From assembly GCA_038883795.1 (NCBI GenBank), contig JAVZLK010000001.1:96001-160000 (forward strand): a stretch of DNA of 64,000 nt, read 5' to 3'. Shown piece by piece: positions 3-59,599 of the stretch. The notes under the pieces were generated by a model that did no database searches, was not told the DNA's origin, and worked only from the letters and a program-made list of their open reading frames with translations. Origin of the DNA: Candidatus Bathyarchaeia archaeon (GTDB lineage: Archaea > Thermoproteota > Bathyarchaeia > Bathyarchaeales > Bathycorpusculaceae). Each line of letters begins with the position of its first letter. Within the stretch, counting starts at the first letter, position 1. A program made the translations under genes and the position numbers.

Positions 3-110
3 GGTACTTCTTTGTATGATGCTCTTTCAAGCGAAGAAAAGAAAGGAATAGAGGAAGCAGCGAAAGCGATTTACCAAACATACCAAACGGCAATAGAAGG
101 CATCGAATAA
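3..110 (+). CDS. 3' end of a CDS truncated by the window edge, product unknown
   Basis: Frame 3 is open from the edge: GTSLYDALSSEEKKGIEEAAKAIYQTYQTAIEGIE, TAA at 108-110. Confidence 0.55.
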   Translation, partial: GTSLYDALSSEEKKGIEEAAKAIYQTYQTAIEGIE

Positions 111-193
111 AGCTGTAATTTATGATTTTCTAACATACTAATGTTAAATAATAAAAGCCAGTATCATGAAACAGAAAAAATAAAGGTGGCAGC

Positions 194-1702: not shown

Positions 1703-2571
1703 GCTTCATTATTCCATAGTTCAAGGAAGAGAGTTTTTAGGGTTTTAACGAAGGCTTCGTAGTTTGTCCATAAGGCTGCAACTCTCTTTTTTCCATTGTT
1801 CTTTCTTATTAGCAGAAGCAGTTGCTCATCGTCTCTGAGGATAAAGGTTGGCAGGTCTTCAACGTTTGAAAGGGAGTATTTGGATTTTTTTAGTTTTATT
1901 TTTTCGATGAAGAAGCAGCTTTTTGGGGAATAATTAGTTAGTAGATGCACGTTTATGTTTTCCTTGGACATTGTTTCAAGTTTGTCTAGGAATCCAGAAT
2001 GGTAGAAGTTTGCTATGTCATGTTCTGAGGCGAAGACGTAAACTTCTCTTTGGGCGTTATTGAGTATTTCATCTGCCTTGAGGTTAATTTGCTCTTCGCC
2101 TTCCAAAACTTGAAATACCTCTTTTCTTTCATGTTCTGTTTCTGGTTTGGGAAGAGAAAGCCAAAGGTTGATCAGGTTTCCCTTTTTCTTTTCAAGAAGG
2201 CTTATTTTCATTTTTTTGGTTTCGATAAGTATTTCTAATGCCTTTTCGAAAGGTATGGCAATGAATTTTAAAGGTTTTTCAAAAACAGAGGATATTAACC
2301 CCTTTTTCTCCAAATCACGCAAAATTCTGTAAGTCTCAGTTCTGTGAAGGGATAACGCCTCGGAAATTTCACTCGCTTTGTGTTCGCTTGTTCTTGCGAG
2401 ATAAATGTAAACCTTAATCTCATTTTTTGATAATCCAAGCCTGTGAAGAGCCTTCTCTATTATTTCTAGGGATTTTGGTGGTCCCTTATCTGTTTTTACG
2501 AATCTCCACATTCCCGAGTTTTCGTCGTATAATTTTACGATATTTTGGGTTTTGTCGACTGTTAGTTCCAT
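1699..2571 (-). CDS. TrmB-family transcriptional regulator
   Basis: LGLSKNEIKVYIYL...ASEISEALSLHRTETYRILRDLEKKGLI wHTH, a coiled coil, then a PLD-like effector domain (ILNNAQREVYVF; ALWTNYEAFV...FLELW). Confidence 0.85.
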   Translation of the reverse strand: MELTVDKTQNIVKLYDENSGMWRFVKTDKGPPKSLEIIEKALHRLGLSKNEIKVYIYLARTSEHKASEISEALSLHRTETYRILRDLEKKGLISSVFEKPLKFIAIPFEKALEILIETKKMKISLLEKKKGNLINLWLSLPKPETEHERKEVFQVLEGEEQINLKADEILNNAQREVYVFASEHDIANFYHSGFLDKLETMSKENINVHLLTNYSPKSCFFIEKIKLKKSKYSLSNVEDLPTFILRDDEQLLLLIRKNNGKKRVAALWTNYEAFVKTLKTLFLELWNNEA

Positions 2572-2599
2572 TCTGACCCTCTAGCAGCCTTGCTCCTTA

Positions 2600-2670
2600 T
2601 TCTGACTCTGATTCAGAACCGTTTTACTCAAAGCGTCATATTTTATACTTCTGAATCTGAAATCTGAATC
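2600..2670. promoter_or_regulatory. Candidate operator: TCTGA-based palindrome and tandem repeats in the divergent promoter
   Basis: TTCTGActcTgatTCAGAA imperfect palindrome at 2600-2618, and TTCTGAATCTGAAATCTGAATC at 2649-2670, flanking an AT-rich TATA-like segment. Confidence 0.4.
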
Positions 2671-2760
2671 CAAAATCAACATTTCAAAATTTTTAAGCAA
2701 CAAAAGCTAAAAGCATGAACCGCTTAGAACAGCAGAATTAGAGAGAAGGAGAAAAGGAGA

Positions 2761-3234
2761 ATGCAAAGTAAACAGGGTTATGCTTTTTGCTTTAAAAATT
2801 TCTTAGTTCCAAGAAACAATCATTGGTTAAAAAGAACAGCATTACTTTTCGCCTTCATAATATTTGATTACCTAATAACCCTTGCCCTTTGCCGCATCCC
2901 TCAAGAAGAAGCCAATTTTTATGCAAGGGTTTTTATGGAAAATTTCGGCATACCCCTTGGATTGACGCTTTTCGTTGTTGTGGTTAACTTACCAATCTAC
3001 ATGATATTGAGCATAGATTCGCATGTTATAAAGTTTCCATTCAAGATAGGTGTTGTTATCGAAACTTTGGTTGATTTTATCTTTGCATGGTTTGTCGCTG
3101 GACTGCATTTTAGTGGTGGTTCCAGTTGGGTTTGGTTTGCTCCAGATTGGACACGCCAAACTTTTGGCGCTTTTTTGTATTTGTTTTTGGCTTTTCTAAT
3201 TGTTAAGCCTCACAAGCCATCTTATGCTGCTTAG
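2761..3234 (+). CDS. Small membrane protein (DUF5658-like)
   Basis: About 4 TM helices; FDYLIT...EEANFYAR resembles the D..T...EANP motif. Confidence 0.55.
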   Translation: MQSKQGYAFCFKNFLVPRNNHWLKRTALLFAFIIFDYLITLALCRIPQEEANFYARVFMENFGIPLGLTLFVVVVNLPIYMILSIDSHVIKFPFKIGVVIETLVDFIFAWFVAGLHFSGGSSWVWFAPDWTRQTFGAFLYLFLAFLIVKPHKPSYAA

Positions 3235-3337
3235 TAGGCTTGTTAGTGCGTAACAGTTCACAACATACTAACCCTATTATCCCTTAACAATTGATTACTT
3301 TGCAGAGTCTATTAGCGAAGAACACGGGAGATTCTTT

Positions 3338-4012
3338 ATGGAAGCCAAAAACGTTAAACCTAAAGTAAACGCCGAACAAACGCAACCACAACCACCAAAA
3401 GAAGCACAACCCGAGGTTGTGGAAGAAGCATACTTTTTCCATCCCGTACAGTTATCTGAAGAAAGCGAGGAAATTTTAGACGAGAAGGAAATAGAAAAAT
3501 CTAAAACTGAAATTGAACAGAAACTTCAAGAATTCCTAAAAAGCATAAGCGAGGAAACATTACAGTTAAGCGAGTTTCTGATCGAAGAAAAAACCCTCAT
3601 CAACGAACTTTGCATGTCCCTTAAACAAATTCTCAAAAAACTTAACGTCTCCTTCAACATTCCTCCGCAAAATGTACCCTTCAAGAAAAAAGTCAAAAAG
3701 TTAATTTTGAATGAGGAAGGACACCTAATACTCGTTCCCGAAAAAGGCGAGGTTAACTCAGCCTTCCTAGCAGAGTATCCGCCTGAAATTGTCATGGCTG
3801 TTTTATGGGTTATATTGCCTGAACTGGCGAAGGTGATAATGCTGTATAGAAAGAAGATAAGCACAAGGGTCAACTTCTTTGGAAAGTTGAAAAAGGAACT
3901 GAAAGGAGTTGTTAAGGCTATTGTTGGAGGCAAAGAGGAAACCGCCGTTTTAAGCGAAGAAAGGACCATGGATGTTGTAAAAGAATCCGTAACAACAGGA
4001 AATCAAAGCTAA
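3338..4012 (+). CDS. Hypothetical acidic/coiled-coil protein
   Basis: 224-aa ORF with GGGAG upstream; Glu/Lys-rich helical composition. Confidence 0.7.
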   Translation: MEAKNVKPKVNAEQTQPQPPKEAQPEVVEEAYFFHPVQLSEESEEILDEKEIEKSKTEIEQKLQEFLKSISEETLQLSEFLIEEKTLINELCMSLKQILKKLNVSFNIPPQNVPFKKKVKKLILNEEGHLILVPEKGEVNSAFLAEYPPEIVMAVLWVILPELAKVIMLYRKKISTRVNFFGKLKKELKGVVKAIVGGKEETAVLSEERTMDVVKESVTTGNQS

Positions 4013-8981: not shown

Positions 8982-9481
8982 TATTTCTCCTCTGTTGTTT
9001 TCAATCTTTTTTCGAGAATTTTGGCTAGTTCTTCCTCTTCTAAGGCTTGTTTTTCTTCGAAACTTAGATTTTCCGGCAGCCAAGAGGGGGAAACGCCTTT
9101 GTTTTTATAATATTTTCTTATGGCTCTGTGGAGTGCACCGACGGCTAGGACGCCGCAGTGGAATTTTATGCTTGGCAATCCGCCGACGGCTTCGGCTACG
9201 CTTTTCCATGAAGTTTTCCATGCATCTTCAAGTTTCATGCCTTTAATCATTTCTGTGAGGATGCTGGATGTGGCTATGTTTGCGGCGCAGCCGTAACTTT
9301 CAAATGAAGCCTTCTCAATAACTTCTTGCTCATTTATTTTTAAGTAGAAAGTTATCATATCTCCACATGCTGGGTTTCCAGCAACAGCCGTAACCGTGGC
9401 GTCTTCCATCTTTCCAAGATTTTTCGGATTCCTAAATAGTTCAAGAACTTTTGGGTTGTAGGGTAATGGCATCCTCGACAT
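8981..9481 (-). CDS. iscU: IscU/NifU-N Fe-S cluster scaffold protein
   Basis: GNPACGD, YGCAANIA and LPSIKFHC supply the three Cys ligands. Confidence 0.9.
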   Translation of the reverse strand: MSRMPLPYNPKVLELFRNPKNLGKMEDATVTAVAGNPACGDMITFYLKINEQEVIEKASFESYGCAANIATSSILTEMIKGMKLEDAWKTSWKSVAEAVGGLPSIKFHCGVLAVGALHRAIRKYYKNKGVSPSWLPENLSFEEKQALEEEELAKILEKRLKTTEEK

Positions 9482-46872: not shown

Positions 46873-48153
46873 ATGCCAAAAAACCATTGGGGAGAAATAA
46901 AAGACCCAGTGCATGGATACGTATACATAACAGAAGAAGAAAAGGAAATAATAGATTCTTATCCCGTGCAAAGACTGCGAAGACTGCGCCAACTGGCTGG
47001 GGCAGAATATGTTTATCCAGGAGCAAACCACACACGCTTTGAACATTCAGTAGGCGTCATGTATTTAGCTGGGAAGGTTGCCGAAAACCCAAACATCTCC
47101 CAGCACATAAGCAAAGAAGAAAGGGAGATTATTAAAATTGCCGCTTTGCTCCATGATGTTGGACACGGACCCTTCTCCCACGTTTTTGAACATTTACTTG
47201 ATAAAGAGTTAGGTAAAACCCATGAAGACATGACTTATTGGATAATTACTAACAGCGAATTAAAAGATACCATCAAAAAGTTTGGTTATAACCCCGAACA
47301 CATTGGAAAATTGGCTGTGGGAAGACTTCACAAACCCAAAAAAGCCTTTCTAGACCAAATAATAAGCAGCGCCGTAGACGTAGACAAACTAGACTTTGTG
47401 ATAAGAGATACGCATCATACAGGCGCGGAGTATGGCTTTGTTGACATTTTCAGACTAATCCATGCATTAGATGTGTTGGACGAAAATTTGGCAGTAGATT
47501 TGGGCGCCCTCTCAGCCCTCGAATCCTTCATAATCGCAAGAATAGAATCATTCAAAAGCATATACTTCCACCGAGTCGGAAGAGCCGCCCAAATAATGCT
47601 TGCCATTGCCATGGAAAAGGCAAACCCAGAACTTGAATTAACCCAATTCAAATCACCAGAAGAGTACCTCGCCATGGACGATTATACGGTCTGGACTCAG
47701 CTTAAAAAATGCAAAAAGTCAAGCGAGATTATAAAAAATCTTGAAAGGCGAAAAATGCTAAAATGCGCTTACGAATGGACCTTTTACGAAAAAGACGTAA
47801 AAATCTCAAACATTTTCAGCAAAGAAGCCCACAGAAGACAACTTCAAACAGACATTGCAAAAAAGGCGGGGGTGGAAACAGAAGCCGTAATAATAGATGT
47901 GCCAACTGTCCCATCAGTTCCCTATCACCATTCAGTTTTAATGGAACCAATGGAAATTCCATCCTTCTACAAAACCCGCGAAGGCGAAAAAGTTCAACAA
48001 TGCTTAAGTGACGTATCAAAAATTTTCGAAGTCCTAAAAGGGTTCATAAACATACTGCGTGTTTACACAAACGAAGAAAACCGTGAAAAAGTTAGTGCAG
48101 CAGCAGCAAAGATTTTAGGTGGAACCCCCACAACAGCAAGAATATCCTATTAA
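46873..48153 (+). CDS. HD-domain phosphohydrolase (SAMHD1/dNTPase-like); start taken at MPKNHWG
   Basis: DPVHG, QRLRRLRQL, HTRFEHSVG, LLHDVGHGPFSH, DVDKLD and IYFH. Confidence 0.88.
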   Translation: MPKNHWGEIKDPVHGYVYITEEEKEIIDSYPVQRLRRLRQLAGAEYVYPGANHTRFEHSVGVMYLAGKVAENPNISQHISKEEREIIKIAALLHDVGHGPFSHVFEHLLDKELGKTHEDMTYWIITNSELKDTIKKFGYNPEHIGKLAVGRLHKPKKAFLDQIISSAVDVDKLDFVIRDTHHTGAEYGFVDIFRLIHALDVLDENLAVDLGALSALESFIIARIESFKSIYFHRVGRAAQIMLAIAMEKANPELELTQFKSPEEYLAMDDYTVWTQLKKCKKSSEIIKNLERRKMLKCAYEWTFYEKDVKISNIFSKEAHRRQLQTDIAKKAGVETEAVIIDVPTVPSVPYHHSVLMEPMEIPSFYKTREGEKVQQCLSDVSKIFEVLKGFINILRVYTNEENREKVSAAAAKILGGTPTTARISY

Positions 48154-48163
48154 AGTGTGTGAA

Positions 48164-48580
48164 ATGCAGCCAATAACAATAAAAGGAAGAAAAATAGTTG
48201 AGGGACACTGCAAAGCACAAGCCCTCGTATCCGCTAAGCCAATAAGCTTTTTGGGAGGAGTAGACCCAGACGACGGAAAAATAATCGAACGCGACCACGA
48301 TTTGTATGGAAAGTGCATAAAGGATAAAGTCTTGTGCTTTCCGCACGGGCACGGCTCGACCGTTGGCAGCTACGTGCTATATTCCCTTGCCAGAAAAAAT
48401 TGTGCGCCAAAAGCCATAATCAATCAGACTGCTGACCCAGTCGTAGTTGTTGGAGCCATAATAGCGGACATCCCAATGATTGACCAAATAGACATCAGAC
48501 GAATAATGATAGACGACATAGTAGAAGTCGACGCTTACAAAGGTTTTATCAAAATTTGGAAACAGAAAGGAGCAAGATAG
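48164..48580 (+). CDS. Aconitase X swivel subunit (phosphomevalonate dehydratase small subunit)
   Basis: ISFLGGVDP..G and GHGSTVGSYVL with the catalytic Ser. Confidence 0.85.
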   Translation: MQPITIKGRKIVEGHCKAQALVSAKPISFLGGVDPDDGKIIERDHDLYGKCIKDKVLCFPHGHGSTVGSYVLYSLARKNCAPKAIINQTADPVVVVGAIIADIPMIDQIDIRRIMIDDIVEVDAYKGFIKIWKQKGAR

Positions 48581-48582
48581 AC

Positions 48583-49755
48583 ATGTACTTAACAAAGGAA
48601 GAAGAACGCATCTACGATGGCGAGTTTGGCTGGGCAAACCAAGTATGCATGAAAATCCTCGTCCGTTTGGGCGAACTTTTCAATGCTAAAAAACTCATTC
48701 CAATAAGCTCCGCCCACGTTTCAGGAGTTTCCTATAAAACCTTAGGAGACGCACCCACAGAATTCCTAGAAGCCTTGGCAAAGGCAGGTGCGAAAGTAAA
48801 AGTAAAATCAACACTAAACCCCCAAAGCCTCGACTGTAATCTCCTCTGCAAAAGGCTTCCATTTGACTTGCATGAAAAGCAAAGGAATGTTCTGAATTAC
48901 TTTGAGAAAATGGAGTTTACGCCCTCACTAACATGCACGCCATACTATTTAGAAGAAACCAAAAAGGGCTCTCATTTGGCATGGGCTGAATCTTCAGCAG
49001 TAGTTTATGCAAATTCGGTCCTTGGAGCGTGGACAAATCGGGAAGGAGGACCCAGCGCCCTTGCAGCGGCAATAATAGGGAAAACACCAGATTATGGCAT
49101 GCATCAAGCTGAAAATCGCCAACCGAAGGTTTTAGTGAAATTAGAAAAACCGTTAATAAATGAGGTTGAGTTTGGTGCTTTAGGGATTTTTTTAGGCGAA
49201 ATTTTGAAAGACGAAATCCCAATAATCCAAGGTTTAGAAAAAGCTTCAAAGGATAACCTAAAACAGTTGGGAGCAGCTCTTGCAACTACTGGAATGGCAA
49301 ACATGTTCTACCACAAGCCCCTACGCATAAAAACCGAAAAAATTGAAAAAGTAAGTGTGCAAACTGAAGATTTAAAAAGAACAATTGAAGAACTGACTAC
49401 AACAACGCAAAAACCAGACCTAATTTTTGTAGGATGCCCCCACTGTTCCCTAGATGAAATTATGCAAATTGCAGAGTTAATAGGTAATAGAAAAATTAAA
49501 AGTGAAATAGAATTTTGGGTTTGCGCATCCCGCTATATCAAAGAAAAAGCCGGAAAATATGTGGAGAAAATAGAAAAAAGTGGATCCTACGTGCTCACTG
49601 ATACATGTGCTGTTGTCACTTGGACAGAAAAGCTTGGAATAAAAACAATAATGACAAACTCCGCAAAAACAGCCCATTATGCTCCTACGCTAAACAAAGC
49701 ACAAACGATACTTGCACCCTTAAAAGAGTGCATAAAAAAGGCTTGCGAAGGATAA
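48583..49755 (+). CDS. Aconitase X catalytic subunit (phosphomevalonate dehydratase large subunit)
   Basis: MYLTKEEE, HVSGVSY, TCTPY, WAESSAVVYANS, GCPHCS, DTC and TNSAK. Confidence 0.87.
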   Translation: MYLTKEEERIYDGEFGWANQVCMKILVRLGELFNAKKLIPISSAHVSGVSYKTLGDAPTEFLEALAKAGAKVKVKSTLNPQSLDCNLLCKRLPFDLHEKQRNVLNYFEKMEFTPSLTCTPYYLEETKKGSHLAWAESSAVVYANSVLGAWTNREGGPSALAAAIIGKTPDYGMHQAENRQPKVLVKLEKPLINEVEFGALGIFLGEILKDEIPIIQGLEKASKDNLKQLGAALATTGMANMFYHKPLRIKTEKIEKVSVQTEDLKRTIEELTTTTQKPDLIFVGCPHCSLDEIMQIAELIGNRKIKSEIEFWVCASRYIKEKAGKYVEKIEKSGSYVLTDTCAVVTWTEKLGIKTIMTNSAKTAHYAPTLNKAQTILAPLKECIKKACEG

Positions 49756-49800: not shown

Positions 49801-49875
49801 GCTCCGGTAGTATAGCCCGGTCAAGTATTCCGGCCTTTCGAGCCGGAGACGCGGGTCCGAATCCCGCCCGGAGCA
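49801..49875 (+). tRNA. tRNA-Glu(TTC), CCA not encoded
   Basis: Acceptor GCTCCGG/CCGGAGC-A; anticodon arm CCGGC-CT-TTC-GA-GCCGG; T arm GCGGG-TCCGAAT-CCCGC. Confidence 0.92.
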
Positions 49876-49885
49876 TTAAATTTTA
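49862..49885 (+). repeat. attL-like direct repeat (tRNA-Glu 3' end)
   Basis: TCCCGCCCGGAGCATTAAATTTTA, 23/24 identical to 52183-52206. Confidence 0.85.
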
Positions 49886-50016
49886 AGCTCATTTTGGGCT
49901 TATTTTTAACTAAAAAGGCTGATTTGAGTTAATTGAAGTTAATTTGGAAGCAAGCTAAAAATAGAACACAAAATTACTGGCAAAAACACCACTGCGATTT
50001 TAAGCTTAATATTAGT

Positions 50017-50268
50017 TTAGTAGACACGTTTACGATGACCTACAACTAACAAGAATACTTGGTTTTTCTTAATCTGATAGAGAACTCTGTAATCGCCTAT
50101 TCTTAAGGAGTAAACACCTTTCCATTCACCGCGTAAAGGCTTTCCTAGGTAAGGGTTAGTCTTTAGCATGTTGATTTCTCGAATTATCCGTACCTGAATT
50201 TCTCTGTTTAAAGCTTTGATGTTCTTTAAAAAGCGCGGCGTAAACCGAATTTCAAATTTCGCTTTCAA
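50017..50268 (-). CDS. RelE/ParE-family type II toxin
   Basis: FEIRFTPRFLKNIKAL...NPYLGKPLRGEWKGVYSLRIGDYRVLY...VGHRKRVY. Confidence 0.9.
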   Translation of the reverse strand: MKAKFEIRFTPRFLKNIKALNREIQVRIIREINMLKTNPYLGKPLRGEWKGVYSLRIGDYRVLYQIKKNQVFLLVVGHRKRVY

Positions 50269-50452
50269 GGTTTAACTCTCTTATAAGCTCATTCAATGGT
50301 CTAGTCTTGCCCTCTTCAACCTCGCGTAATGCAATCTTCAAATCTCTAACAAGCTTCTTATCCTGCATAACCTCAAGAGTTTCCAATAATTCATCTATTA
50401 AAATTGCGGCTTTTGTAAGTAACTCTTTCTCTTCCGCTGTCAAGATAGGCAT
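50252..50452 (-). CDS. Cognate antitoxin (RelB/Phd C-terminal-like)
   Basis: Small gene upstream of and overlapping the toxin; ELLETLEVMQDKKLVRDLKIALREVEEGKT. Confidence 0.8.
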   Translation of the reverse strand: MPILTAEEKELLTKAAILIDELLETLEVMQDKKLVRDLKIALREVEEGKTRPLNELIRELNLESEI

Positions 50453-50631
50453 TTACCTTTCACAACCTCTCATAATGTAAGATCTCTACGGGCATCTTAA
50501 CTTTTACGCTCAAAACAGACACAAAAAGACGATAAACAGAATTTGGTTCATCTTGAAATTTGAACAAGTCTTTCTATGAAATCTTCAAATATACAAGAGA
50601 AATTAATTTTTCATGGTGGAGGTGAATAGCA

Positions 50632-52140
50632 CTGTCGTCGGATTTACTTTCTAAGTATTTAATAGAGGCAGAAGAACATATTAAGAATGCGAAGGAACAA
50701 AGTCGAAGCGCCGGCGATGCAGAACAAACAGGTAAAATTGAGGATGCTGCTAAGTTTTATTACTCGGCTGGAAGAGAGTATTTTCTAGCCGCTGTTAAGT
50801 TCAAAATGATTTTAATGTTTTTAAAATACTTATCAGAACCCTCGCTTACAGATGACAAATCGCCTAAGTTAAGGTTAATTGATGCGCTCGAAGGCAGTTG
50901 TAGTTGTTACGAAAAAGCGGCTCAACTTTTCAAAAATGTTGATAACCGATTTATTGAATCGGAGGCTTATGGGAAGGCTGCATTAAATTACATTGAACTT
51001 GCCGAATTAAAGAATGAGAAAGCATTAAAAAGAGAGATTAAAGAAGACAAACTTTCAACATGTGTCGGAGAAATCCAACTCTTCACATATGCTAGAGATA
51101 CACCTCTTGGTAAAGCCATTACTGCTTATCATAATGCCGCATTAGCGCTATATGACCTTGGAATGAAGTATAGAAACTCTGGTGAAATCGATAAGGCATA
51201 CGTGATCATTGGTGAAATGGGTGATGCCTATCTAAGTATAGGGTTACTATACGAAAACGAGGAGCTTGAATCGGCTGTTGAAAATTTCTTTTACGCTGCA
51301 GAAGCATATAAGGAGAGTGGGTTGCTTTCACGAAAAGTGGGAATACCAACAATAGTTCACCATGCACGACTTGAGTGGAGATATGCAACAAGGAATGCCA
51401 AAGAATTTTTCAAAGATGAGAGAGGCTACTACACCCTCGATGATGTAAGGAGAGCCGTCAAAACCTACGAGAAAACGAGAGAATTAGCCGCGAAAATGAA
51501 TAACAAAGAAATTGTGTATAAATGCTCAAAAGCTATAATGCTTCTCTCAGCGGATGTTAAAGAGCCAAGAGATTCGATAAAAAGTTGTCAAGAAATTTGT
51601 GAAGCGCTATCAGAATTTGTGATTCTGCCTATAGACTTGAGCAATAAGCAACTTGAGGCTGCTGATAAGGAAGTTATCCGTTCAAGTCTGAGGAAGTATT
51701 CTGATGACCCTAAACAAGGCGCATACCAACTTATCAGCTACTTAGAAACGAGGCTTAGGTCGTACATTAAAGAAAAACTTAGTTCAACCAATCCGGCAAA
51801 TTGGTTTAAAGAGTTAGTTATTCCTGCTATGAACCCGGACGATTTAAGGATCATCGGTTTAAACTACAATCGAGAAACTGGTAAAAATCCAGATGACCTG
51901 CTGAATGAAGAAAACCCACTTAATTTTGCAAACATCAATCATTTGCAGAAAATCATTTCCAATAATAGACTTTGGGAGAGTTATTTTAAAAACGACTTTA
52001 TAAATTTGGAGGAATTCAACGCTAACATGTCGATTATTGTTAGAATAAGGCATCCAACAATGCATACAAGAGAGACGAACATTTTCGAAGCTGCAGTAAC
52101 TCCAGCGATATGGATTCTGGAAAGACTCAGAATTAGCTAA
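50632..52140 (+). CDS. SNAP/TPR-like helical-repeat protein with C-terminal Swt1-like HEPN domain; probable CTG start at 50632 (first ATG 50806)
   Basis: Repeated A..Y..AA..Y helices; C-terminal AYQLISYLETRLRSYI...NW...PLNFANINHLQKII...W...F...IRHPTMH with RxxxxH at 52048-52065. Confidence 0.72.
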   Translation: MSSDLLSKYLIEAEEHIKNAKEQSRSAGDAEQTGKIEDAAKFYYSAGREYFLAAVKFKMILMFLKYLSEPSLTDDKSPKLRLIDALEGSCSCYEKAAQLFKNVDNRFIESEAYGKAALNYIELAELKNEKALKREIKEDKLSTCVGEIQLFTYARDTPLGKAITAYHNAALALYDLGMKYRNSGEIDKAYVIIGEMGDAYLSIGLLYENEELESAVENFFYAAEAYKESGLLSRKVGIPTIVHHARLEWRYATRNAKEFFKDERGYYTLDDVRRAVKTYEKTRELAAKMNNKEIVYKCSKAIMLLSADVKEPRDSIKSCQEICEALSEFVILPIDLSNKQLEAADKEVIRSSLRKYSDDPKQGAYQLISYLETRLRSYIKEKLSSTNPANWFKELVIPAMNPDDLRIIGLNYNRETGKNPDDLLNEENPLNFANINHLQKIISNNRLWESYFKNDFINLEEFNANMSIIVRIRHPTMHTRETNIFEAAVTPAIWILERLRIS

Positions 52141-52182
52141 CAGTGTAACGTCGACTAATTTACTGGTAAATTTGTGCGCCGT

Positions 52183-52206
52183 TCCCGCCCGGAGCATTTA
52201 ATTTTA
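52183..52206 (+). repeat. attR-like direct repeat
   Basis: TCCCGCCCGGAGCATTTAATTTTA; its last 3 nt are the thrC stop codon on the minus strand. Confidence 0.85.
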
Positions 52207-53409
52207 TGGTAACATATCTGCATTTTTTGCCAGTACGGGTATTTCGTTCTTTTTTATATACATAAAATCAAGATATTTCATAGCATTACCGGTTAAATAG
52301 AGAAGTACGTTTTCATCCTTCTCAATAGTTCCGTCATTTTCGAGTTTGTTTAATGCCGTTAGGGTTGCGGAGGCTTCTGGACATGCATACACGCCGTTTT
52401 TGAGAAGGGTCTTCATTGAAGCGATTATTTCTGTGTCATCTACTGCTACTGCCGTGCCCTTCGTTTCTCTTATTGCTCGTAAGACGAGATAGCTTGCGTA
52501 GGGACGGGGAACTCTCAAACCTGCCGCTATGGTTTCAGCGTTTTCCCAAGCCTCTTTTACTTCCGCATCTCCGTTTTTATATGCCTTGACTAAGGGGGCG
52601 CAGCCAGTAGACTGAACAATAATCAGCCTTGGAATTTTTTCTGTCCAGCCGAGTTGTATTAAATCTTTGAAGCCTTTCCAAAGTCCTATTATTCCTTCGC
52701 CTCCGCCTGTTGGGAAGATTATGTTATCTGGTAAATCCCAATTGAATTGTTCTGCAATTTCAAATGCCATGGCTTTGTAGCCTTCATATCTGTAGGGTTG
52801 CTTGTTGGTGGAAACATCTAACCATCCATAATCTTTTCCAAACTTTTTCACCATGTCTGCGGCGTCATTTATCAAACCATCAACAAGATACACTTTGGCG
52901 CCCATAGAAACGCATTCTTTAATGTTGCATTCTGGCGCATCCTTTGGCATGAAAACATAAACTTCCATTCTAGCCTTCGCTCCATAAGCAGCTAAAGCTG
53001 CTGCAGCGTTTCCAGCAGAAGGCAAAGCAACCCGCTTAACTTTTAACTCTTTAAGCCTAGAAACAGCCACAGCCATCCCTCGAGCTTTAAAGGTTCCTGT
53101 GGGAAGCCTCCCGTCGTCCTTCAAAAAGACTTTTGAAACTGCTTTGCTGCCCCTATGAAATCTTAGTATGGGCGTGTAGGGTTCTCCTAAAGAAACTATG
53201 CTGTTAGGCGATGATAAGGGAAGAAGTTCTTTGAACTTCCAAAAGGTATCTTCCCTAAACTCTAAATCACTTTTGGAAACCTTTTCGGAAACTCTTGCTA
53301 AATCATATTGAAATAGAAGGGCTCCACCACATTTTGGGCATACAGTTAAAACATTGTCTGAGGGGTAAACTTCTCCGCATCTGCTGCATTCAGCCCCGAC
53401 TGTGAACAT
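52204..53409 (-). CDS. thrC: Threonine synthase (PLP, N-terminal zinc ribbon)
   Basis: CSRCG...CPKCGG, LPTGTFKARG, SAGNAAAA, EGYKAMAFEIAEQ and PTGGG. Confidence 0.85.
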   Translation of the reverse strand: MFTVGAECSRCGEVYPSDNVLTVCPKCGGALLFQYDLARVSEKVSKSDLEFREDTFWKFKELLPLSSPNSIVSLGEPYTPILRFHRGSKAVSKVFLKDDGRLPTGTFKARGMAVAVSRLKELKVKRVALPSAGNAAAALAAYGAKARMEVYVFMPKDAPECNIKECVSMGAKVYLVDGLINDAADMVKKFGKDYGWLDVSTNKQPYRYEGYKAMAFEIAEQFNWDLPDNIIFPTGGGEGIIGLWKGFKDLIQLGWTEKIPRLIIVQSTGCAPLVKAYKNGDAEVKEAWENAETIAAGLRVPRPYASYLVLRAIRETKGTAVAVDDTEIIASMKTLLKNGVYACPEASATLTALNKLENDGTIEKDENVLLYLTGNAMKYLDFMYIKKNEIPVLAKNADMLP

Positions 53410-53548
53410 ATAGTTTCCCGAATAATTGTAAGAGAGAAATCCTTTAAGTTTATTGTGAAAACTTCAACCATAAGCATATTTTACATAAAACTCATATAGA
53501 AGGATGCTTCTATCCGATAATCTTCAAACTTTAAAAGGAGATGAAGAA

Positions 53549-55084
53549 ATGACTGAAAAAGCACCATCAAGTTATAAGAGGTTGATGGAAAAAGTTAGGG
53601 ATTTACTAACTCTTCAGTCTGCCATTTCCATCATCCACTGGGACATGGAAACAATGATGCCACCGAAAGCAATTACGCTACGAAGCCAACAATTAGCCCT
53701 CCTTAGCCGAATCGAACATAGAATGAGCACAGATCCTGAAGTAGGCAAGCTGTTGGAGGAGGTTATGCGCCCTTCGGAATACGAGAAGCTCGACGTAATT
53801 CAAAAAAGAAACGTGTATTTGATAAAGAAGCAGTATGATGAAAAGACAAAGATTCCAGAAGAACTTGTTGCAGAAATAGCAAAACAACAAGCTATAACCG
53901 TGGATGTCTGGAAAAAAGCCAAAGCAGCCAGAAACTTCGCTATGTTCAAGCCTGAACTTGAAAAACTTGTCGAATTAGAGAAGAAGGCTGCAGAAATTTT
54001 GATGAAAGTAAAAGAAACCGCCACGCCCTACGATGCATTAATAGATATTTTTGAACCAAAAATGACGGCAAAAACAATAACAAAAGTTTTTAATGAACTA
54101 AGAGAAGGTTTGGTTTCCCTACTGAAAAAATGTGAAGCTGCTCCAAAACAACCAGACGTAAGCATTCTCAAACGCAAAGTTCCAATAGATGTGCAGAGAA
54201 AAATTGCTAAAGCGCTTGCCGAAGTTGTCGGTTATGATATAGAGTCAAAAGAAGCCGGAGGCAGACTTGACGAAACAGAACATCCTTTCACAACAGGTTA
54301 TTATGATGATGTGCGGATAACCACGCATTATTATGAAGACAACTTCACATCTTCAATATTTTCAGTGTTACATGAAGCAGGACACGCTCTCTACGAGCAA
54401 AACTTGAAAAAAGAATGGATGTTTCAGCCTGTAGGAACAAGCTGCTCTTCAGGCTTCCACGAATCCCAATCTCGGTTTATAGAAAACATAATCGGAAGGT
54501 CCCGTGAATTTTGGATTTATTTCCTGCCAAAAATGAAGGAAATTGCGGGCAACATCCTTTCTGATGTGAATTTGGAAACTTTTGTCCACGCTATTAATCA
54601 AGTTACGCCTTCAAAAATCCGCGTTGAAGCCGATGAAGTAACCTATGGACTTCACATAATAATAAGGTTCAATATGGAAAGAGACCTTTTCGCCGACAAA
54701 ATAACTGTGAAAGAACTTCCAGAAATATGGAACCAACATTACAAGGAATATTTAGGAGTCAAAATTGAAAATGATTCTGAAGGTGTAATGCAGGACACCC
54801 ACTGGGCCAGCGGATTGTATGGATACTTCCCAAGTTATGCCTTAGGCAATATTTATAGCGGCCAAATCCTCGCAGTCATGGAAAAAGACCTTAAAAACTG
54901 GAAGGAACAAATTGCAAAGGGAAACATAAATGACGTGAAGGAATGGCTAGTCAAAAACATTCACTCCTATGGAAACCTCTATGATCCGGAAGAGCTTATA
55001 AGAAAAATCACTGGAAAAGGCTTGACTGTTAAACCATACTTAAACTATCTGAACGAAAAATACTCTGAACTTTATGGCTTTTAA
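53549..55084 (+). CDS. Carboxypeptidase Taq (peptidase M32); start taken at MTEKAPS
   Basis: WDMETMMP, HPF, DVRITT, LHEAGHALYEQ, HESQS, IRVEADE, QDTHW and GYFPSYALG. Confidence 0.93.
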   Translation: MTEKAPSSYKRLMEKVRDLLTLQSAISIIHWDMETMMPPKAITLRSQQLALLSRIEHRMSTDPEVGKLLEEVMRPSEYEKLDVIQKRNVYLIKKQYDEKTKIPEELVAEIAKQQAITVDVWKKAKAARNFAMFKPELEKLVELEKKAAEILMKVKETATPYDALIDIFEPKMTAKTITKVFNELREGLVSLLKKCEAAPKQPDVSILKRKVPIDVQRKIAKALAEVVGYDIESKEAGGRLDETEHPFTTGYYDDVRITTHYYEDNFTSSIFSVLHEAGHALYEQNLKKEWMFQPVGTSCSSGFHESQSRFIENIIGRSREFWIYFLPKMKEIAGNILSDVNLETFVHAINQVTPSKIRVEADEVTYGLHIIIRFNMERDLFADKITVKELPEIWNQHYKEYLGVKIENDSEGVMQDTHWASGLYGYFPSYALGNIYSGQILAVMEKDLKNWKEQIAKGNINDVKEWLVKNIHSYGNLYDPEELIRKITGKGLTVKPYLNYLNEKYSELYGF

Positions 55085-55146: not shown

Positions 55147-55270
55147 CCGACACCAGCCGACACCAAAAAATCCAACAAAATGCAGCGAAATGTCTATTTA
55201 TATTTGTTATACCGACAGTTTTATATACAACTTTGAAATTTAACATCTATTGGTGGACTTAAAGTGTCGG
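55147..55270 (+). promoter_or_regulatory. fae-hps promoter with repeated CCGACA/TGTCGG boxes
   Basis: CCGACA at 55147, 55157 and 55212; CCAACA at 55172; TGTCGG at 55265; TATA TTTTATATA at 55219-55227; GGTGG RBS at 55252. Confidence 0.5.
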
Positions 55271-56721
55271 AATACAATTTCAAAAAGCCAGAATCAAGGG
55301 AGGAACTTATCAGAGTATTGACGGATGCTGCCAGAAGAGAAATGCAGGAACGAATTCGCGCCAAGGAAAAACCGACAAAACCTACAGTTTCAGGAACAGC
55401 GAAAATTTTGAATATTCATAGGGATACGCTTTATACTTGGCTTAAGGAGTTTAATGTCGATTTTGATGATATTTGTAAACAAGTTTCTACGAAAGTTTTG
55501 TCGGAAACTGTGGAAGCGCCTGGAAAATATACCTATTTAATCGGCGAAGCCCTTGTCGGAGAGGGTAATGAGGTTGCGCATATTGATCTTTTGATAGGGG
55601 ATAAGGATGGGCCTGTTGGAGAGGCTTTTGCTCAAGGGCTTTCTAATCTTTCTATGGGGCACACGCCATTATTAGCGGTTATAAGGCCTAATCTTCCACC
55701 TAAACCTCATACTTTGCTTGTGCCAAAGGTTACTGTGAATAAGTTTGAAGATGCAAACAAGATTTTTGGTCCGGCGCAGGCTGCTGTGGCGAAGGCTGTT
55801 GCGGATGCTGTTGAGGAGGGGATTATTCCTAAAGAGAAGGTGGATGATTGGGTTATAATTTGCAGCGTTTTCATGCACCCCCAAGCTAGCGATTATCGGA
55901 AAATATACCACTATAACTATGGAGCAACCAAGCTGGCTTTAAAGAGAGCATTGGCAAAGTATCCTTCATTGGAGAAGGTTTTCTATGATAAGGATAGAGC
56001 TAAACATCCAATAATGGGATTCAGAGTGCCACGCCTTTGGAGACCACCATATCTGCAAATATCTTTGGACATACCAGACTTGGATAGAACTAGAAAGATT
56101 ATAGCTCAGATTCCTCGCAGCGACAGAATAATATTGGAGGCCGGAACGCCGCTAATTAAGCGCTATGGAACAAGGGTGATAAGCGACCTTCGAGATGTTG
56201 CCAAAGATGTTTTCTTCATTGCAGATTTGAAAACTTTAGATGTTGGAAAGGTTGAAGTTGACTTGGCTTATGATGAAACCGCAGACGCCGTTATCGCTGC
56301 AGGATTAGCCCCGGAAGAAACCCTTAACGCCTTCATTCACGAAGCAAAAAGACTTGGAATATATGCAGTGGTGGACATGCTAAACGTAGAAGATCCTATC
56401 AAAAAGTTGAAGACGCTTAGAGAATTTCCCGACGTAGTAATCATCCATAGAGGAATCGACGAAGAAAGCGGAAGGACAATAGGATTGGAGCTAATACCAG
56501 AACTGCGGAAAACCTTCAGCGACAAGCGCTTTTTGATTGCCGTGGCAGGCGGCATAGTGCCAGAAACTGCTAAAGAGGCTTTAGAAAAAGGCGCCGACAT
56601 AATCGTTGTTGGGAGGTATGTGACGCAGTCAAAGGACATTGAAAGGGCTGTGAGGGAGTTCCTTGAGCTTACGCCTTCCATGAGAGAAGACATAGACTTG
56701 TTCAGAGTTCACGTAGAATAG
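55264..56721 (+). CDS. fae-hps: Bifunctional formaldehyde-activating enzyme / 3-hexulose-6-phosphate synthase with N-terminal Fis-like HTH
   Basis: Fae: [44 protein letters not shown]. Hps: [26 protein letters not shown] at aa 41-65. Confidence 0.9.
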
Positions 56722-56831
56722 TCTTTGCTAACCCACTTTTAAAATAATTGTTTCTGGCAAATTTCTCCATTTTTCGTAAATCCTTAATAGAGAGAATTTC
56801 AACTTTCATAACACTACGGGGAAAAACTTTC

Positions 56832-57272
56832 ATGCCAAAGTTCAAAGTGATCATATCAGACCCAGAAACAGGAACATCAAAGGCAATAGAGCTCGAGGAG
56901 GCTCGGGCACTTCCGTTGATTGGAAAGAAAATAGGCGACATAGTGGACGGGTCAGTAGTGGATTTGCCTGGTCATAAAATACAGATTATGGGTGGCTCCG
57001 ACAAGGATGGTTTTCCAATGAGACCGAACGTTCATGGTGGAGTCCGCAGAAAAGTGATTCTAAGCGGAGGGGTAGGATTTAATCCAAAGAGTGAAGGGGC
57101 TAGGAGACGTAAAACAGTTCGTGGAAACGTGATAACTGATGAAATTGTTCAAGTAAACATGAAAATTGTTGAGAAGCCAAAGAAGCCAAAGGAGAAAAAG
57201 AAAACAAAAGAAGAGAAGGAAAAAGAAGCTGAAGAGGCATCAGAAACATCCACAAGCGAACAAGAAGCCTAG
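56832..57272 (+). CDS. rps6e: Ribosomal protein S6e; start ATG 56832
   Basis: FKVIISDP, GGSDKDGFPMR and GARRRKTVRGN. Confidence 0.95.
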   Translation: MPKFKVIISDPETGTSKAIELEEARALPLIGKKIGDIVDGSVVDLPGHKIQIMGGSDKDGFPMRPNVHGGVRRKVILSGGVGFNPKSEGARRRKTVRGNVITDEIVQVNMKIVEKPKKPKEKKKTKEEKEKEAEEASETSTSEQEA

Positions 57273-57327
57273 AGTCAACATTTATTAGCTTGCACAAGTT
57301 TAACCATTCTAATAATTTGCAAGGTTT

Positions 57328-58590
57328 ATGGGAAAAGAAATGAGCAGTGAAAAACACACCAACATACCAAAACAACCTGAAATTAACATAGGCACCATAG
57401 GTCATGTTGACCACGGCAAGACAACTTTGGTGCAAGCGTTAACTGGTGTTTGGGCGTCAAGGCATAGTGAAGAATTAAAGAGGGGCATAACAATAAAATT
57501 GGGCTATGCCGACATGCCAGTTTACAAATGCCCAAAATGCGAACCGCCCAAAAATTATTCCACAAAACCAGTGTGCCCAAATTGTAATTCAAAAACAACT
57601 TTTTTTAGAGCCATAAGTTTCGTTGACGCCCCAGGTCATGAGGCGTTGATGGCGACTATGCTTTCAGGAGCCGCAATAATGGATGGCGCATTACTAGTGA
57701 TAGCTGCTGATGAACCATGTCCTCAACCACAAACCAGAGAACATCTTGCAGCCGCCGAGATAATAGGCATAAAGAACATAGTTATCGTACAAAACAAGAT
57801 TGATATTGTAGACGAGAAAAGGGCACGCGAAAACTATAATGAAATTAAAAATTTTGTCAAAGGAACCATAGCTGAAAACGCCCCAATAATTCCCGTTTCG
57901 GCACAGCGTGGAGTCAACATAGATGTTCTCCTACAAGCCATCGAAGAGTTTATACCCACACCAAAAAGAGACGAAACAAAACCTCCACTTATGTATATAG
58001 TTCGTTCCTTCGACGTTAACAAACCAGGTACTCTAATTGAAAAGTTGGAAGGCGGCGTAATTGGAGGAACGATACTTCAAGGCAAATTTGTGGTGGGAGA
58101 TGAAATTGAAATTCGTCCAGGAGTAGTATTGGAGAAGGAAGGAAAGGGCAACTATAACCCTCTTTTTAGCCAAATTGTAAGTTTGCATGCTGGTGGAAGA
58201 AGCGTAAATGACGCCCATTGTGGTGGACTAGTCGGTGTCGGAACTCTGTTAGACCCGTCCTTTTCAAAAGCCGATGGCTTAACTGGAAACATCGCTGGAA
58301 AATCGGGAATGCTGCCGCCAACTTTGTCGGAGTTAACATTAGAAACAAATGTTTTGGAGCGCGTGGTTGGAACGAAAGAACTTTTGAAAGTTGAAGAGAT
58401 AGGCATGAATGAAAACCTTCTTCTGCACGTGGGTGCTGCCATAACCCTTGGGAAAGTGGTTTCAGTAAAAGGAGAAAAGGTTACAGTCAAGCTTACAAGA
58501 CCCGTATGTGCACAAAAAGGTTCAAGAGTTGCCCTAAGTAGAAAAATTGCAGGCAGATGGAGACTCATAGGATATGGAATGATACAGTAA
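57328..58590 (+). CDS. eif2g: Translation initiation factor aIF-2 gamma (start may be 57340)
   Basis: QPEINIGTIGHVDHGKTT, RGITIKLGY, DAPGHE, NKID and RWRLIGYG. Confidence 0.96.
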   Translation: MGKEMSSEKHTNIPKQPEINIGTIGHVDHGKTTLVQALTGVWASRHSEELKRGITIKLGYADMPVYKCPKCEPPKNYSTKPVCPNCNSKTTFFRAISFVDAPGHEALMATMLSGAAIMDGALLVIAADEPCPQPQTREHLAAAEIIGIKNIVIVQNKIDIVDEKRARENYNEIKNFVKGTIAENAPIIPVSAQRGVNIDVLLQAIEEFIPTPKRDETKPPLMYIVRSFDVNKPGTLIEKLEGGVIGGTILQGKFVVGDEIEIRPGVVLEKEGKGNYNPLFSQIVSLHAGGRSVNDAHCGGLVGVGTLLDPSFSKADGLTGNIAGKSGMLPPTLSELTLETNVLERVVGTKELLKVEEIGMNENLLLHVGAAITLGKVVSVKGEKVTVKLTRPVCAQKGSRVALSRKIAGRWRLIGYGMIQ

Positions 58591-59001
58591 ATGACAACTT
58601 CAGACAAAAAAACAATAAAAGTAATTTTAGACTCAAACGCCTTATTTGTCCCGCTCCAATTTAAAATTGACATTTTTGAAGAGTTGCGAACCTTGTTGGA
58701 TAGAAATTTTGAGCCCATTTTGCTTTTGCCTGTTAAGCGTGAGCTTGAAAGGTTGGCGAATGAAGGTTCTCCGAAAATGAGGAAAAATGCTTCTTTTGCT
58801 TTAGAGCTTGCTGAAAAATGTAAGTTAGTTTATGATGAATTTACGGCATCTGCTGATGAGGCGATTATCCAAGTGGCCAAAAAATGGAAATGCCCAGTGT
58901 TTACGAATGATAAATTGTTGCGAAAGAGGCTAAGAGATATAAATGTGCCAGTTATTTATGTGAGGCAAAAATCACATCTAGAAATTGACGGGAGGATGTA
59001 A
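58591..59001 (+). CDS. PIN-domain protein (Fcf1/Utp24-like)
   Basis: VILDSNAL, ELE, ADEAI and FTNDKLLRKRL; conserved position after aIF2g. Confidence 0.88.
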   Translation: MTTSDKKTIKVILDSNALFVPLQFKIDIFEELRTLLDRNFEPILLLPVKRELERLANEGSPKMRKNASFALELAEKCKLVYDEFTASADEAIIQVAKKWKCPVFTNDKLLRKRLRDINVPVIYVRQKSHLEIDGRM

Positions 59002-59005
59002 CCTC

Positions 59006-59599
59006 TTGTTCAAACTTATAACATTAGAAGATACAATCCGCATACCGCCAGAAACCTTCGGCAACCCCTTGGAAGCGGTAGGCTACCAACAGGTCAAGGC
59101 AAAATATGAAGGGGTTGTGGACGAAGAATTAGGATACGTAATAGCTGTAACCGAGGTGAAAGTAAGCCCCATTGGAAAAATAATTCCAGGCGACGGCGCT
59201 GCATATCACAAGGTAACCTTTTCCTTACTAACATTCTATCCCAAAATTCAGGAAGTGGTGGAAGGAGAAGTTGTGGAGGTGGCCGATTTCGGCGCCTTCG
59301 TGCGCATAGGTCCCATTGATGCTTTATTGCATGTTTCACAGCTTATGGACGATTTCATTTCGTATGATGAGAAACAGGGAGTATTACTTGGAAAGGAAAC
59401 TAAGCGAAAACTTGCAAGCGGCGACCAGGTTCGTGTTCGGATAACAGCAGTTTCGCTAACGAGGGCTGGAGGTTCGGGGAAAATCGGTGTGACAGCAAGG
59501 CAGCCTTTTCTTGGCAAGTTGGAGTGGATTGATGAGGATGTGGAGAAAATAAAGAAGAAAGCAGAGAAACCTTCAGAAAAAGAAGAAGCAAAAAAATAG
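59006..59599 (+). CDS. rpoE1: RNA polymerase subunit Rpo7 (E'); start TTG 59006
   Basis: DTIRIPPETFG, GKIIPGDGAAY and FGAFVRIGPIDALLHVSQ. Confidence 0.95.
   Translation: MFKLITLEDTIRIPPETFGNPLEAVGYQQVKAKYEGVVDEELGYVIAVTEVKVSPIGKIIPGDGAAYHKVTFSLLTFYPKIQEVVEGEVVEVADFGAFVRIGPIDALLHVSQLMDDFISYDEKQGVLLGKETKRKLASGDQVRVRITAVSLTRAGGSGKIGVTARQPFLGKLEWIDEDVEKIKKKAEKPSEKEEAKK

Follow-up and report, generated by a model that had tools for sequence, protein, structure and literature searches.

The stretch of DNA analysed here (the window) comprises 64,000 nucleotides of a Candidatus Bathyarchaeia genome (GCA_038883795.1, contig JAVZLK010000001.1, positions 96,001 to 160,000 of the forward strand), a metagenome-assembled genome of 2.18 Mb in 81 contigs that is 87% complete. 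At 50632..52140 on its forward strand the window carries a gene for a protein in which a predicted TPR-like or SNAP-like alpha-solenoid is followed by a predicted Swt1-like HEPN domain, and which we refer to as the sensor-HEPN protein. The gene lies next to a tRNA-Glu gene in a 2.3-kb islet that is bounded by attachment-site-like (att-like) repeats and consists of a toxin-antitoxin pair and this gene, without an integrase.

Gene model and selection

The stop-to-stop frame extends from 50626 to 52140 on the forward strand (504 codons, stop codon at 52138-52140), and from the CTG codon at 50632 it comprises 502 codons followed by the stop codon. No ATG, GTG or TTG lies in frame upstream of 50806. 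The earliest open reading frame (ORF) with a canonical start begins at ATG 50806 and encodes 444 aa, and the protein database entry for the gene (P0001) is 441 aa long; both are truncated calls, and a start at ATG 50806 was rejected because it would remove a helical hairpin conserved in all homologues. The 13 full-length relatives (486-508 aa, 49-86% identity) align from the codon at 50632. Seven loci were aligned at this position: TTG stands there in L003-L006 and CTG in the other three (the window, L002 and L008), and GGAGG is located a few bases 5' of it in five of the seven (the window and L002-L005). In the window we read a Shine-Dalgarno-like sequence, GGAGGTGA (50618..50625, forward strand), with a 6-nt spacer to the CTG. 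Because the full-length homologues align from this codon, the position is shared as TTG or CTG and GGAGG lies upstream, the start at 50632 was accepted, and the sequence evidence supports 50632-52140 as the best gene model.

These are also the coordinates given in an earlier note on this DNA, and all nine motifs listed in that note were located in the frame: AAKFYYSAGREYFLAA (residues 41-56), CYEKAAQLF (94-102), AYGKAALNY (114-122), AYHNAALALY (167-176), FFYAAEAYKESG (221-232), LETRLRSYI (373-381), NWF (392-394), PLNFANINHLQKII (431-444) and RHPTMH (475-480; 52048-52065).

The pairwise ratio of nonsynonymous to synonymous substitution rates (dN/dS) over the whole gene is 0.096-0.10 between the window copy and those of L003, L004 and L007, the three pairs with measurable dS; dS was saturated in some of the comparisons with L006 and L009. 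For the same three pairs the ratio is 0.096-0.12 in the N-terminal two thirds and 0.07-0.08 in the C-terminal third, which holds the HEPN domain. The 13 full-length relatives and a dN/dS of about 0.1 therefore argue for a real gene under purifying selection and not a chance ORF.

The weak TTG and CTG starts would fit low expression of a toxic protein. If the CTG copies (window, L002 and L008) are translated, they would be an archaeal example of initiation at CTG. The sequencing runs that contain this stretch are labelled hot springs metagenome, and no RNA run is present among them; two labelled metatranscriptomic are flagged 'probably DNA', and the contigs from these two runs, which cover parts of the gene, cannot show expression.

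Structure of the predicted nuclease domain

The C-terminal part of the protein (approximately residues 360-504; 51703..52137, forward strand) was assigned as a divergent Swt1-like HEPN domain from Pfam, hhalign and a fold search, that is, from sequence profiles and a predicted model. HEPN_Swt1 is the best Pfam match, with an E-value of 0.0033 (18.1 bits) for the protein and of 0.00041 (21.1 bits) for the domain alone, and we regard the domain as a divergent subfamily because its score stays below the Pfam gathering threshold. Eight of ten C-termini of the family match the same model at E <= 0.1, and none of them reaches the cut-off. When the profile of the family C-termini (A7) is compared with one built from 10 Swt1-like HEPN proteins (A8), seven of which are above the Pfam cut-off, hhalign gives a probability of 99.4% and an E-value of 2.9e-21 over 120 columns. 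Among 22 scanned of the 28 proteins that an exhaustive search of representatives returned, 17 match HEPN_Swt1 at E <= 0.01 and 9 reach the cut-off, and their architectures are varied, as seen in P0035 (nSTAND2 + HEPN) and P0032 (DuOB + HEPN). The NCBIfam scan of the protein gave nothing significant, and sequence and profile searches of solved structures found no meaningful relative, the one match to a chemosensory protein (E 0.0016) being spurious.

The AlphaFold2 model of the C-terminal part has a per-residue confidence (pLDDT) of 93.6 and a predicted TM-score (pTM) of 0.89. In a VIA-align comparison of this model against 48,161 chains the top match is the HEPN protein 2hsb_A (Z 9.6, root-mean-square deviation (rmsd) 2.8 A, 108 residues); behind it come Roquin, AbiA (Z 9.2), Csm6 (Z 9.2), the sacsin HEPN domain, HEPN toxins, AbiF, RnlA, LsoA and HepS (9oik_A, Z 5.6). 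By our own count, judged by entry titles or by Table 1 of Anantharaman 2013, HEPN proteins account for 21 of the top 30 rows. We call the fold because of this enrichment of HEPN proteins among the matches and not because of the Z values.

Two conserved motifs lie at the expected catalytic positions of the domain, namely the catalytic-helix motif E374-x3-R378 (ETRLR; 51745..51759, forward strand) and the Rx4H HEPN signature R475-HPTM-H480-x-R482 (52048..52071, forward strand). In an alignment of 21 distant sequences that are 19-41% identical to the window protein (A3), R378 and H480 are invariant, and E374, W393, W450, R475 and R482 are at least 90% conserved. Within the family (14 sequences) R475, H476, T478, M479, H480 and R482 are invariant, and Rx4H is found in 14 of 14. 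The earlier note had named a Swt1-like HEPN domain with an N-terminal E and an R-x4-H motif, and had suggested that the fold and the conservation of the motif be examined; its assignment is borne out by the profile homology, by the HEPN-dominated fold matches, with the C-terminal domain folding as HEPN in the model, and by the conserved E...R and Rx4H residues. Since the active-site residues are intact, the domain is apparently catalytically competent, as judged by sequence. Prediction of a HEPN homodimer from two copies of residues 335-504 with A3 (score 0.01, mark 0.42) gave no answer either way.

Structure of the repeat domain and the linker

The N-terminal part (approximately residues 3-313; 50632..51564, forward strand) is modelled as a TPR-like solenoid. 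The AlphaFold2 model of the whole protein (pLDDT 79.2) contains predicted paired helices through residues 2-311, with a family-specific beta-hairpin insert at residues 135-155, and the conserved motifs of the domain are DTPxGKA, YRNSG and GIPTIV. Foldseek returned 33 matches in the PDB at E <= 0.001, led by LGN/Pins, consensus TPR and alpha-/gamma-SNAP. VIA-align with residues 4-313 as the query matched a designed toroid (Z 17.2), LGN (Z 15.1), Pins (Z 15.0), Sec17 (Z 14.9; rmsd 2.4 A, 177 residues, 19% identity), KLC1 (Z 12.6) and alpha-SNAP (Z 12.5; rmsd 3.0 A, 175 residues, 20% identity). Sec17 and alpha-SNAP are the lowest-rmsd natural matches, in agreement with the SNAP/TPR-like helical repeats that the earlier note had recognised.

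No significant Pfam TPR match was found in the protein (best TPR_17, E 0.21), and hmmscan gave no match to Pfam SNAP (PF14938) at E <= 1. Because neither a SNAP nor a TPR model of Pfam reaches significance, 'SNAP/TPR-like' is used here for likeness of shape between models, and not for family membership or a SNARE-related function. ESM Atlas matches of the N-domain (scores 0.82-0.84), archaeal SNAP/TPR clusters included, are leads only, those to SNAP scoring 0.82-0.83. The protein has no Walker A motif, and no NTPase, STAND or AAA family was found in its Pfam, NCBIfam and PADLOC scans.

The two domains are joined by a linker (approximately residues 312-359; 51559..51702, forward strand), which was delimited from the invariant columns of the family alignment A1 and from pLDDT. 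Residues 312-334 are poorly modelled, with pLDDT below 50. In A1 the residues S317, I318, S320-Q322, I324, C325 and L334-L338 are invariant (the SIKSCQEIC and LPIDL stretches), and K319 and E323 are at least 90% conserved.

Relatives with other C-terminal modules

A word-indexed search of 5.8 billion protein clusters returned 15 clusters, and an exhaustive search of representatives returned 28 proteins at E <= 0.001; the search with the N-domain profile (A4) yielded 18 proteins and no new architecture. One relative, P0021 (535 aa), has the N-domain in common with the window protein (E 7.3e-30, 33% identity over query residues 8-305) and carries another C-terminus. This C-terminus matches the last ~135 positions of the PADLOC profile of LmuA, from Lamassu, with an E-value of 3.1e-12, and the profile of OloB, from Olokun, with an E-value of 4.7e-07. 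A D...E-x-K pattern can be seen in it by eye only and is not the result of a tool, and in the ESM Atlas it matches unnamed clusters, with DUF8371 on 37% of one cluster. P0024 (449 aa) consists of the N-domain and a shorter HEPN domain, and P0018 represents a truncated form of HEPN. Immune receptors show this kind of pattern, in which a single sensor-like domain is combined with different nuclease-type modules.

In another genome of the same family (G023, contig C32; locus L010), an ORF of ~794 aa at 40-2424 (forward strand) encodes a fusion of DGQHR and Swt1-like HEPN domains. Its DGQHR part is DndB/DpdB-like (TIGR03187, E 3.4e-29) and its HEPN part carries RNATMH; a convergent ORF at 2405-3346 (reverse strand, 313 aa) looks DNA methyltransferase-like by eye. 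L010 thus shows this HEPN family in another architecture of defence type.

The islet at the tRNA-Glu gene

The left edge of the islet is formed by tRNA-Glu (UUC), identified with ARAGORN at 49801..49875 (forward strand), an integration hot spot. The left att-like direct repeat (49862..49885, forward strand) consists of the last 14 nt of the tRNA gene and a further 10 nt, and the right one (52183..52206, forward strand), which is identical to it in 23 of 24 positions, abuts the stop codon of thrC. The 14-nt core of the repeat occurs twice in the window as against 0.03 occurrences expected, and 0 of 100 shuffles gave two. The same tRNA-Glu adjoins the module in L005, L021 and L022, and the right repeat is also present 3' of the gene in L003 and L005. 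In L005 a second antitoxin-like copy lies 3' of the right repeat (L005:3841-4117).

Between the tRNA gene and the sensor-HEPN gene, on the reverse strand, lie a toxin gene of the RelE/ParE superfamily (50017..50268; Pfam ParE_toxin, E 3.9e-15; NCBIfam RelE_StbE, 45 bits at a cut-off of 27.9) and a gene for a putative antitoxin of 66 aa (50252..50452), which overlaps the toxin start and has no Pfam or PADLOC match; its role is suggested by its position. L003, L004 and L005 have the same toxin-antitoxin arrangement as the window. L006 is flanked by an MBL hydrolase and, downstream, a MazE/MqsA-like antitoxin-type protein, and L009 by a weak Mrr_cat match (E 0.0066, below the cut-off) and a CPBP/Rce1-like protease. 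We considered and rejected a functional link between the gene and the RelE/ParE pair: three genomes (G001-G003) have the pair without the gene, and the reverse holds for L006, L007 and L009.

In the loci read, no partner gene is conserved across clades, and hence the protein appears to stand alone, as the single-gene reading of the earlier note had it. That note had also asked whether homologues sit in housekeeping contexts; the gene is not in a housekeeping operon and is an insert of variable presence within the tRNA-linked islet, next to the toxin-antitoxin genes.

Outside the islet the window contains aconitase X genes (48119-49755, forward strand), a threonine-synthase-like PALP gene (thrC; 52204-53409, reverse strand), an M32 carboxypeptidase gene (53504-55084, forward strand) and a Fae-Hps gene (55264-56721, forward strand). 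The product of the last comprises Fae (residues 93-251) and OMPdecase/HPS (residues 262-466), preceded by an N-terminal extension of ~90 aa that has no Pfam match and looks helix-turn-helix-like by eye; ORFs of similar size are present in L002 and L004. In L004 the DNA inserted upstream of the islet (L004:6082-7524) encodes a V4R-domain protein, followed by a protein with TackOD1 (thaumarchaeal output domain 1) and a zinc ribbon.

Distribution among Bathyarchaeia and mobility of the islet

Among the 41 nearest genomes two match, including the window's own, and the other one has a distant HEPN match only. Across the class, 5 of 401 genomes match the N-domain profile, including the window's own, and all five belong to its family; the other four are species representatives, and at the same tRNA-Glu/toxin-antitoxin site they carry remnants with frameshifts or internal deletions. 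Apparently intact copies are found on seven metagenome contigs.

A DNA search of four genomes (G001-G004) located a 1.64-kb segment of the window, consisting of the promoter region and the gene (50515..52158), that is missing in G001-G003, three genomes of the same genus which retain the tRNA gene, the toxin-antitoxin pair, thrC and the right repeat. In G003, with which the junction was aligned, the retained parts are 83-84% identical and positions 50515-52158 are replaced by 18 nt. The breakpoints are shared by G001 and G002; G001 has in addition lost a portion of the toxin gene, and a further ~2.8 kb and another copy of the repeat are present in G002. In G004 the locus is split by a contig end. 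The arrangement in G002 (contig C1, ~55649-59046), with ~2.8 kb of other DNA and a repeat before the toxin-antitoxin pair, has the form of a tandem pile-up at the tRNA-Glu site.

Two contig joints from sequencing runs X10 and X1 look like gene-less and islet-less forms. One joins 50471 to 52168 (one contig in each run, shorter side 29 letters) and the other joins 49877 to 52334 (shorter sides 30 and 18 letters); both come under the tool's caution (likeness 90, shorter side <= 30) and were not counted. The gene is rare and patchy, and is often lost, among hot-spring Bathyarchaeia.

The islet (window 49834-52170) is 94.9% identical to locus L002 of a genome of a different genus (G117), whereas the flanking Fae-Hps/S6e region is only 77.9% identical between the two; L004 is 83-85% identical to the window uniformly, through islet and flanks. 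L002 and L020 of G117 were taken as the same record, their alignment figures being identical. The match to L002 starts inside the tRNA (window 49834), and the L002 locus contains no whole tRNA; its gene copy is split into three ORFs. Directly to the left of the module, L002 carries a block of provirus-like genes, among them those for the large subunit of a terminase (L002:2030-3475, PF03237, E 4e-13) and for a YQBQ-like protein. Because the islet is far more similar than its flanks, the match starts in the tRNA and the neighbour is provirus-like, these sequence comparisons identify the 3' end of tRNA-Glu as an active integration site, with the islet recently moved or recombined between lineages.

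The block in L002 (L002:1-9000, equal to contig C5 of G117) also holds an ORF with ABC_tran and GNAT domains and a DUF2400 protein, and adjoins a 3' fragment of tRNA-Glu at ~9223-9264, which suggests a virus or element that integrates into the tRNA-Glu of Bathyarchaeia. An ORF of ~481-488 aa with ABC_tran and acetyltransferase domains is present in both L002 (3472-4917) and L004 (3481-4947), upstream of where similarity to the window sets in, and related elements may occupy the same tRNA-Glu site in two lineages.

Relation to known systems

The C-terminal domain has the same fold as the Swt1-like HEPN domains (PF18731; the Abi2/Swt1 group of Anantharaman 2013) and shares with them E-x3-R, W, NW...F and R-x4-H-x-R. 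According to that work, bacterial Swt1-like HEPN domains are active and defence-linked and are fused to STAND-ATPase, TPR, ParB or REase domains, and its Table 1 lists TPR fusions in the C6orf70, LA2681 and DZIP3 HEPN families. The fusion of TPR and HEPN as a general type is thus already published there. Unlike a typical Swt1-like HEPN protein, the protein described here has the HEPN domain fused directly to a SNAP-like solenoid without an NTPase, and within the searches made its family is confined to one Bathyarchaeia family and a few metagenome relatives. The shape of the N-domain is shared with alpha-SNAP/Sec17 and LGN/Pins, but the beta-hairpin insert and the DTPxGKA, YRNSG and GIPTIV motifs set it apart. 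Our literature searches found no description of a single protein with a SNAP/TPR-like and a Swt1-like HEPN part. What is new here is the direct fusion of the two without an NTPase, the archaeal host and the natural swap to an LmuA-like module.

According to PMC13043305, HepS of the Gifsy-1 prophage is a HEPN protein that acts alone: phage tail-tip proteins activate it allosterically, and it cleaves tRNA in the anticodon loop. By analogy, the sensor-HEPN protein may likewise be a single HEPN polypeptide on or near an integrated mobile element with sensing and execution in one molecule. Unlike HepS it has a separate TPR/SNAP-like domain of ~330 aa, and the sequence link seen between the two is at superfamily level only. 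In combining a repeat sensor with a nuclease effector that is swapped between relatives, it would resemble the Avs/STAND receptors with TPR sensors, and in P0035 an nSTAND2 domain is joined to the same HEPN subfamily. Unlike Avs/STAND proteins it has no NTPase or oligomerisation module, and its presumed sensor is N-terminal and its presumed effector C-terminal. It also differs from the HEPN-MNT toxin-antitoxin systems: its neighbours are the RelE/ParE toxin, the 66-aa antitoxin-like ORF and thrC, and no nucleotidyltransferase (MNT antitoxin) was found in the loci read.

The best PADLOC match of the protein is PDC-M34B (E 1.6e-07, residues 364-483), a profile of ~190 positions that matches the HEPN part only, and which also matches other members of the family and distant Swt1-like HEPN proteins. 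PDC systems are described, in 10.1101/2024.01.29.577857, as candidates obtained by 'guilt-by-embedding', and the term PDC-M34 was not found in the searchable text of the literature. PDC-M34 is named as a multi-gene candidate, whereas here the two adjacent genes match no PADLOC model. The earlier note did not recognise the architecture as a named system, and this domain-level match to a candidate is consistent with that.

Proposed function and alternative explanations

We propose that the protein is a one-protein, NTPase-independent immune sensor-effector of Bathyarchaeia in which a Swt1-like HEPN RNase is gated by a SNAP/TPR-like solenoid, and we give this reading a probability of roughly 55%. 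It is favoured because of the two folds, the conserved catalytic residues, the purifying selection, the lack of a partner gene, the patchy decay, the position in an islet, the exchange between lineages and the swap of the effector. The solenoid would keep the HEPN RNase inactive until a trigger is bound, for which a protein from an infecting virus or from another mobile element is the most plausible candidate. The HEPN domains of two or more protomers would then pair to form a composite Rx4H active site, and cleavage of cellular and/or viral RNA would arrest the infected cell (abortive infection). In this scheme the RNase activity of the protein, its oligomerisation and autoinhibition, the kind of trigger and any effect on viruses are inferred. 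The earlier note had likewise proposed a single-gene sensor-effector that detects a viral protein, activates a HEPN dimer and acts by abortive infection; this reading is plausible, and each of the contextual tests made agrees with it.

Several observations weigh against this proposal. The case is built from sequence, models and genomic context. The HEPN_Swt1 scores of 18.1 and 21.1 bits are below the PF18731 gathering threshold of 27.5, the VIA-align Z values of 9-10 fall in the range that the tool calls a 'common arrangement' for helical bundles, and Foldseek found no match of the C-terminal model in the PDB at E <= 0.001, the best HEPN protein being Csm6 at rank 4 (E 0.96). The window copy begins with CTG, an unusual archaeal start, which makes its expression uncertain. 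Selection on the N-domain is purifying and not diversifying, a mode less typical for receptors engaged in an arms race. There is no multi-system defence island around the gene; besides the toxin-antitoxin pair the flanks are housekeeping genes (aconitase X, PALP, M32 and Fae-Hps), and in L007 the neighbours on either side encode a CCG-domain protein and a ferredoxin. Scans of viral contigs with the family profile A1 and with P0021 found no relative.

An unlikely alternative is a selfish toxin by which the tRNA-Glu islet, or elements integrating there, enforce addiction or stabilise themselves. The N-domain of this toxin would act as a cis inhibitory (antitoxin-like) or chaperone-binding part, and release of the RNase would punish loss or stress and not virus infection. 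The location inside an att-bounded islet beside the RelE/ParE pair, the movement of this islet between genera, the MazE/MqsA-like neighbour downstream in L006 and the match of the fold to HEPN toxins from toxin-antitoxin systems (8xdj, 7ae2 and 5yep) are all consistent with such a role. However, an addiction toxin should resist loss, and this gene is cleanly deleted in three genomes of the same genus and decayed in four others, with the pair kept. No separate antitoxin is conserved across clades, and the LmuA/OloB-like module on the same N-domain resembles the swapping of immune effectors more than a toxin-antitoxin pair. A toxin without an antiviral role would be of modest interest.

It is improbable that the window copy is a silent or dying relic in which the CTG start blocks translation and which is heading to a pseudogene. 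CTG does stand in place of TTG, the 95%-identical copy of L002/G117 is broken into three ORFs, and remnants are found in 4/4 of the other species representatives with a trace of the gene. Nevertheless, the window copy has an unbroken frame of 504 codons and all of its catalytic residues, a strong GGAGGTGA lies 6 nt upstream of the start, CTG also begins the independent intact copy of L008, and the intact copies are under purifying selection.

Least probable of all is a cellular RNA-processing or quality-control factor like eukaryotic Swt1, Las1 or Ire1, docked by its N-domain on a host complex such as a chaperone, the ribosome or membrane-remodelling machinery: eukaryotic Swt1-family and other HEPN proteins do have housekeeping roles (Anantharaman 2013), the N-domain is strongly conserved (dN/dS ~0.1) and the window neighbours are mostly housekeeping, but a core function would not tolerate presence in only 5 of 401 class genomes with one copy intact, absence from three same-genus genomes at an otherwise conserved locus, and exchange between genera.

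Returning to the immune sensor-effector, a broader possibility, which we put forward tentatively and consider doubtful at present, is that the protein defines, as its founding member, a family of NTPase-free pattern-recognition immune proteins in archaea, in which the SNAP-like solenoid recognises a viral or element protein and switches on interchangeable killing modules. If this is true, the modules would be the Swt1-like HEPN RNase in the window protein and the Lamassu LmuA/Olokun-like nuclease module in P0021, and the family would represent a minimal sensor-effector design distinct from Avs/STAND and be among the very few defence types native to archaea. A survey of defence systems reports only one system type that is exclusive to Archaea.

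The family would show how repeat domains can gate HEPN nucleases without an NTPase switch, with the natural effector swap as a test case. The tRNA-Glu islet would serve as a natural experiment in the gain, loss, decay and inter-genus exchange of one gene. Bathyarchaeia are abundant and have barely been cultured, and to our knowledge almost nothing is known of their viruses and defences, to which an immune sensor-effector of this kind would belong.

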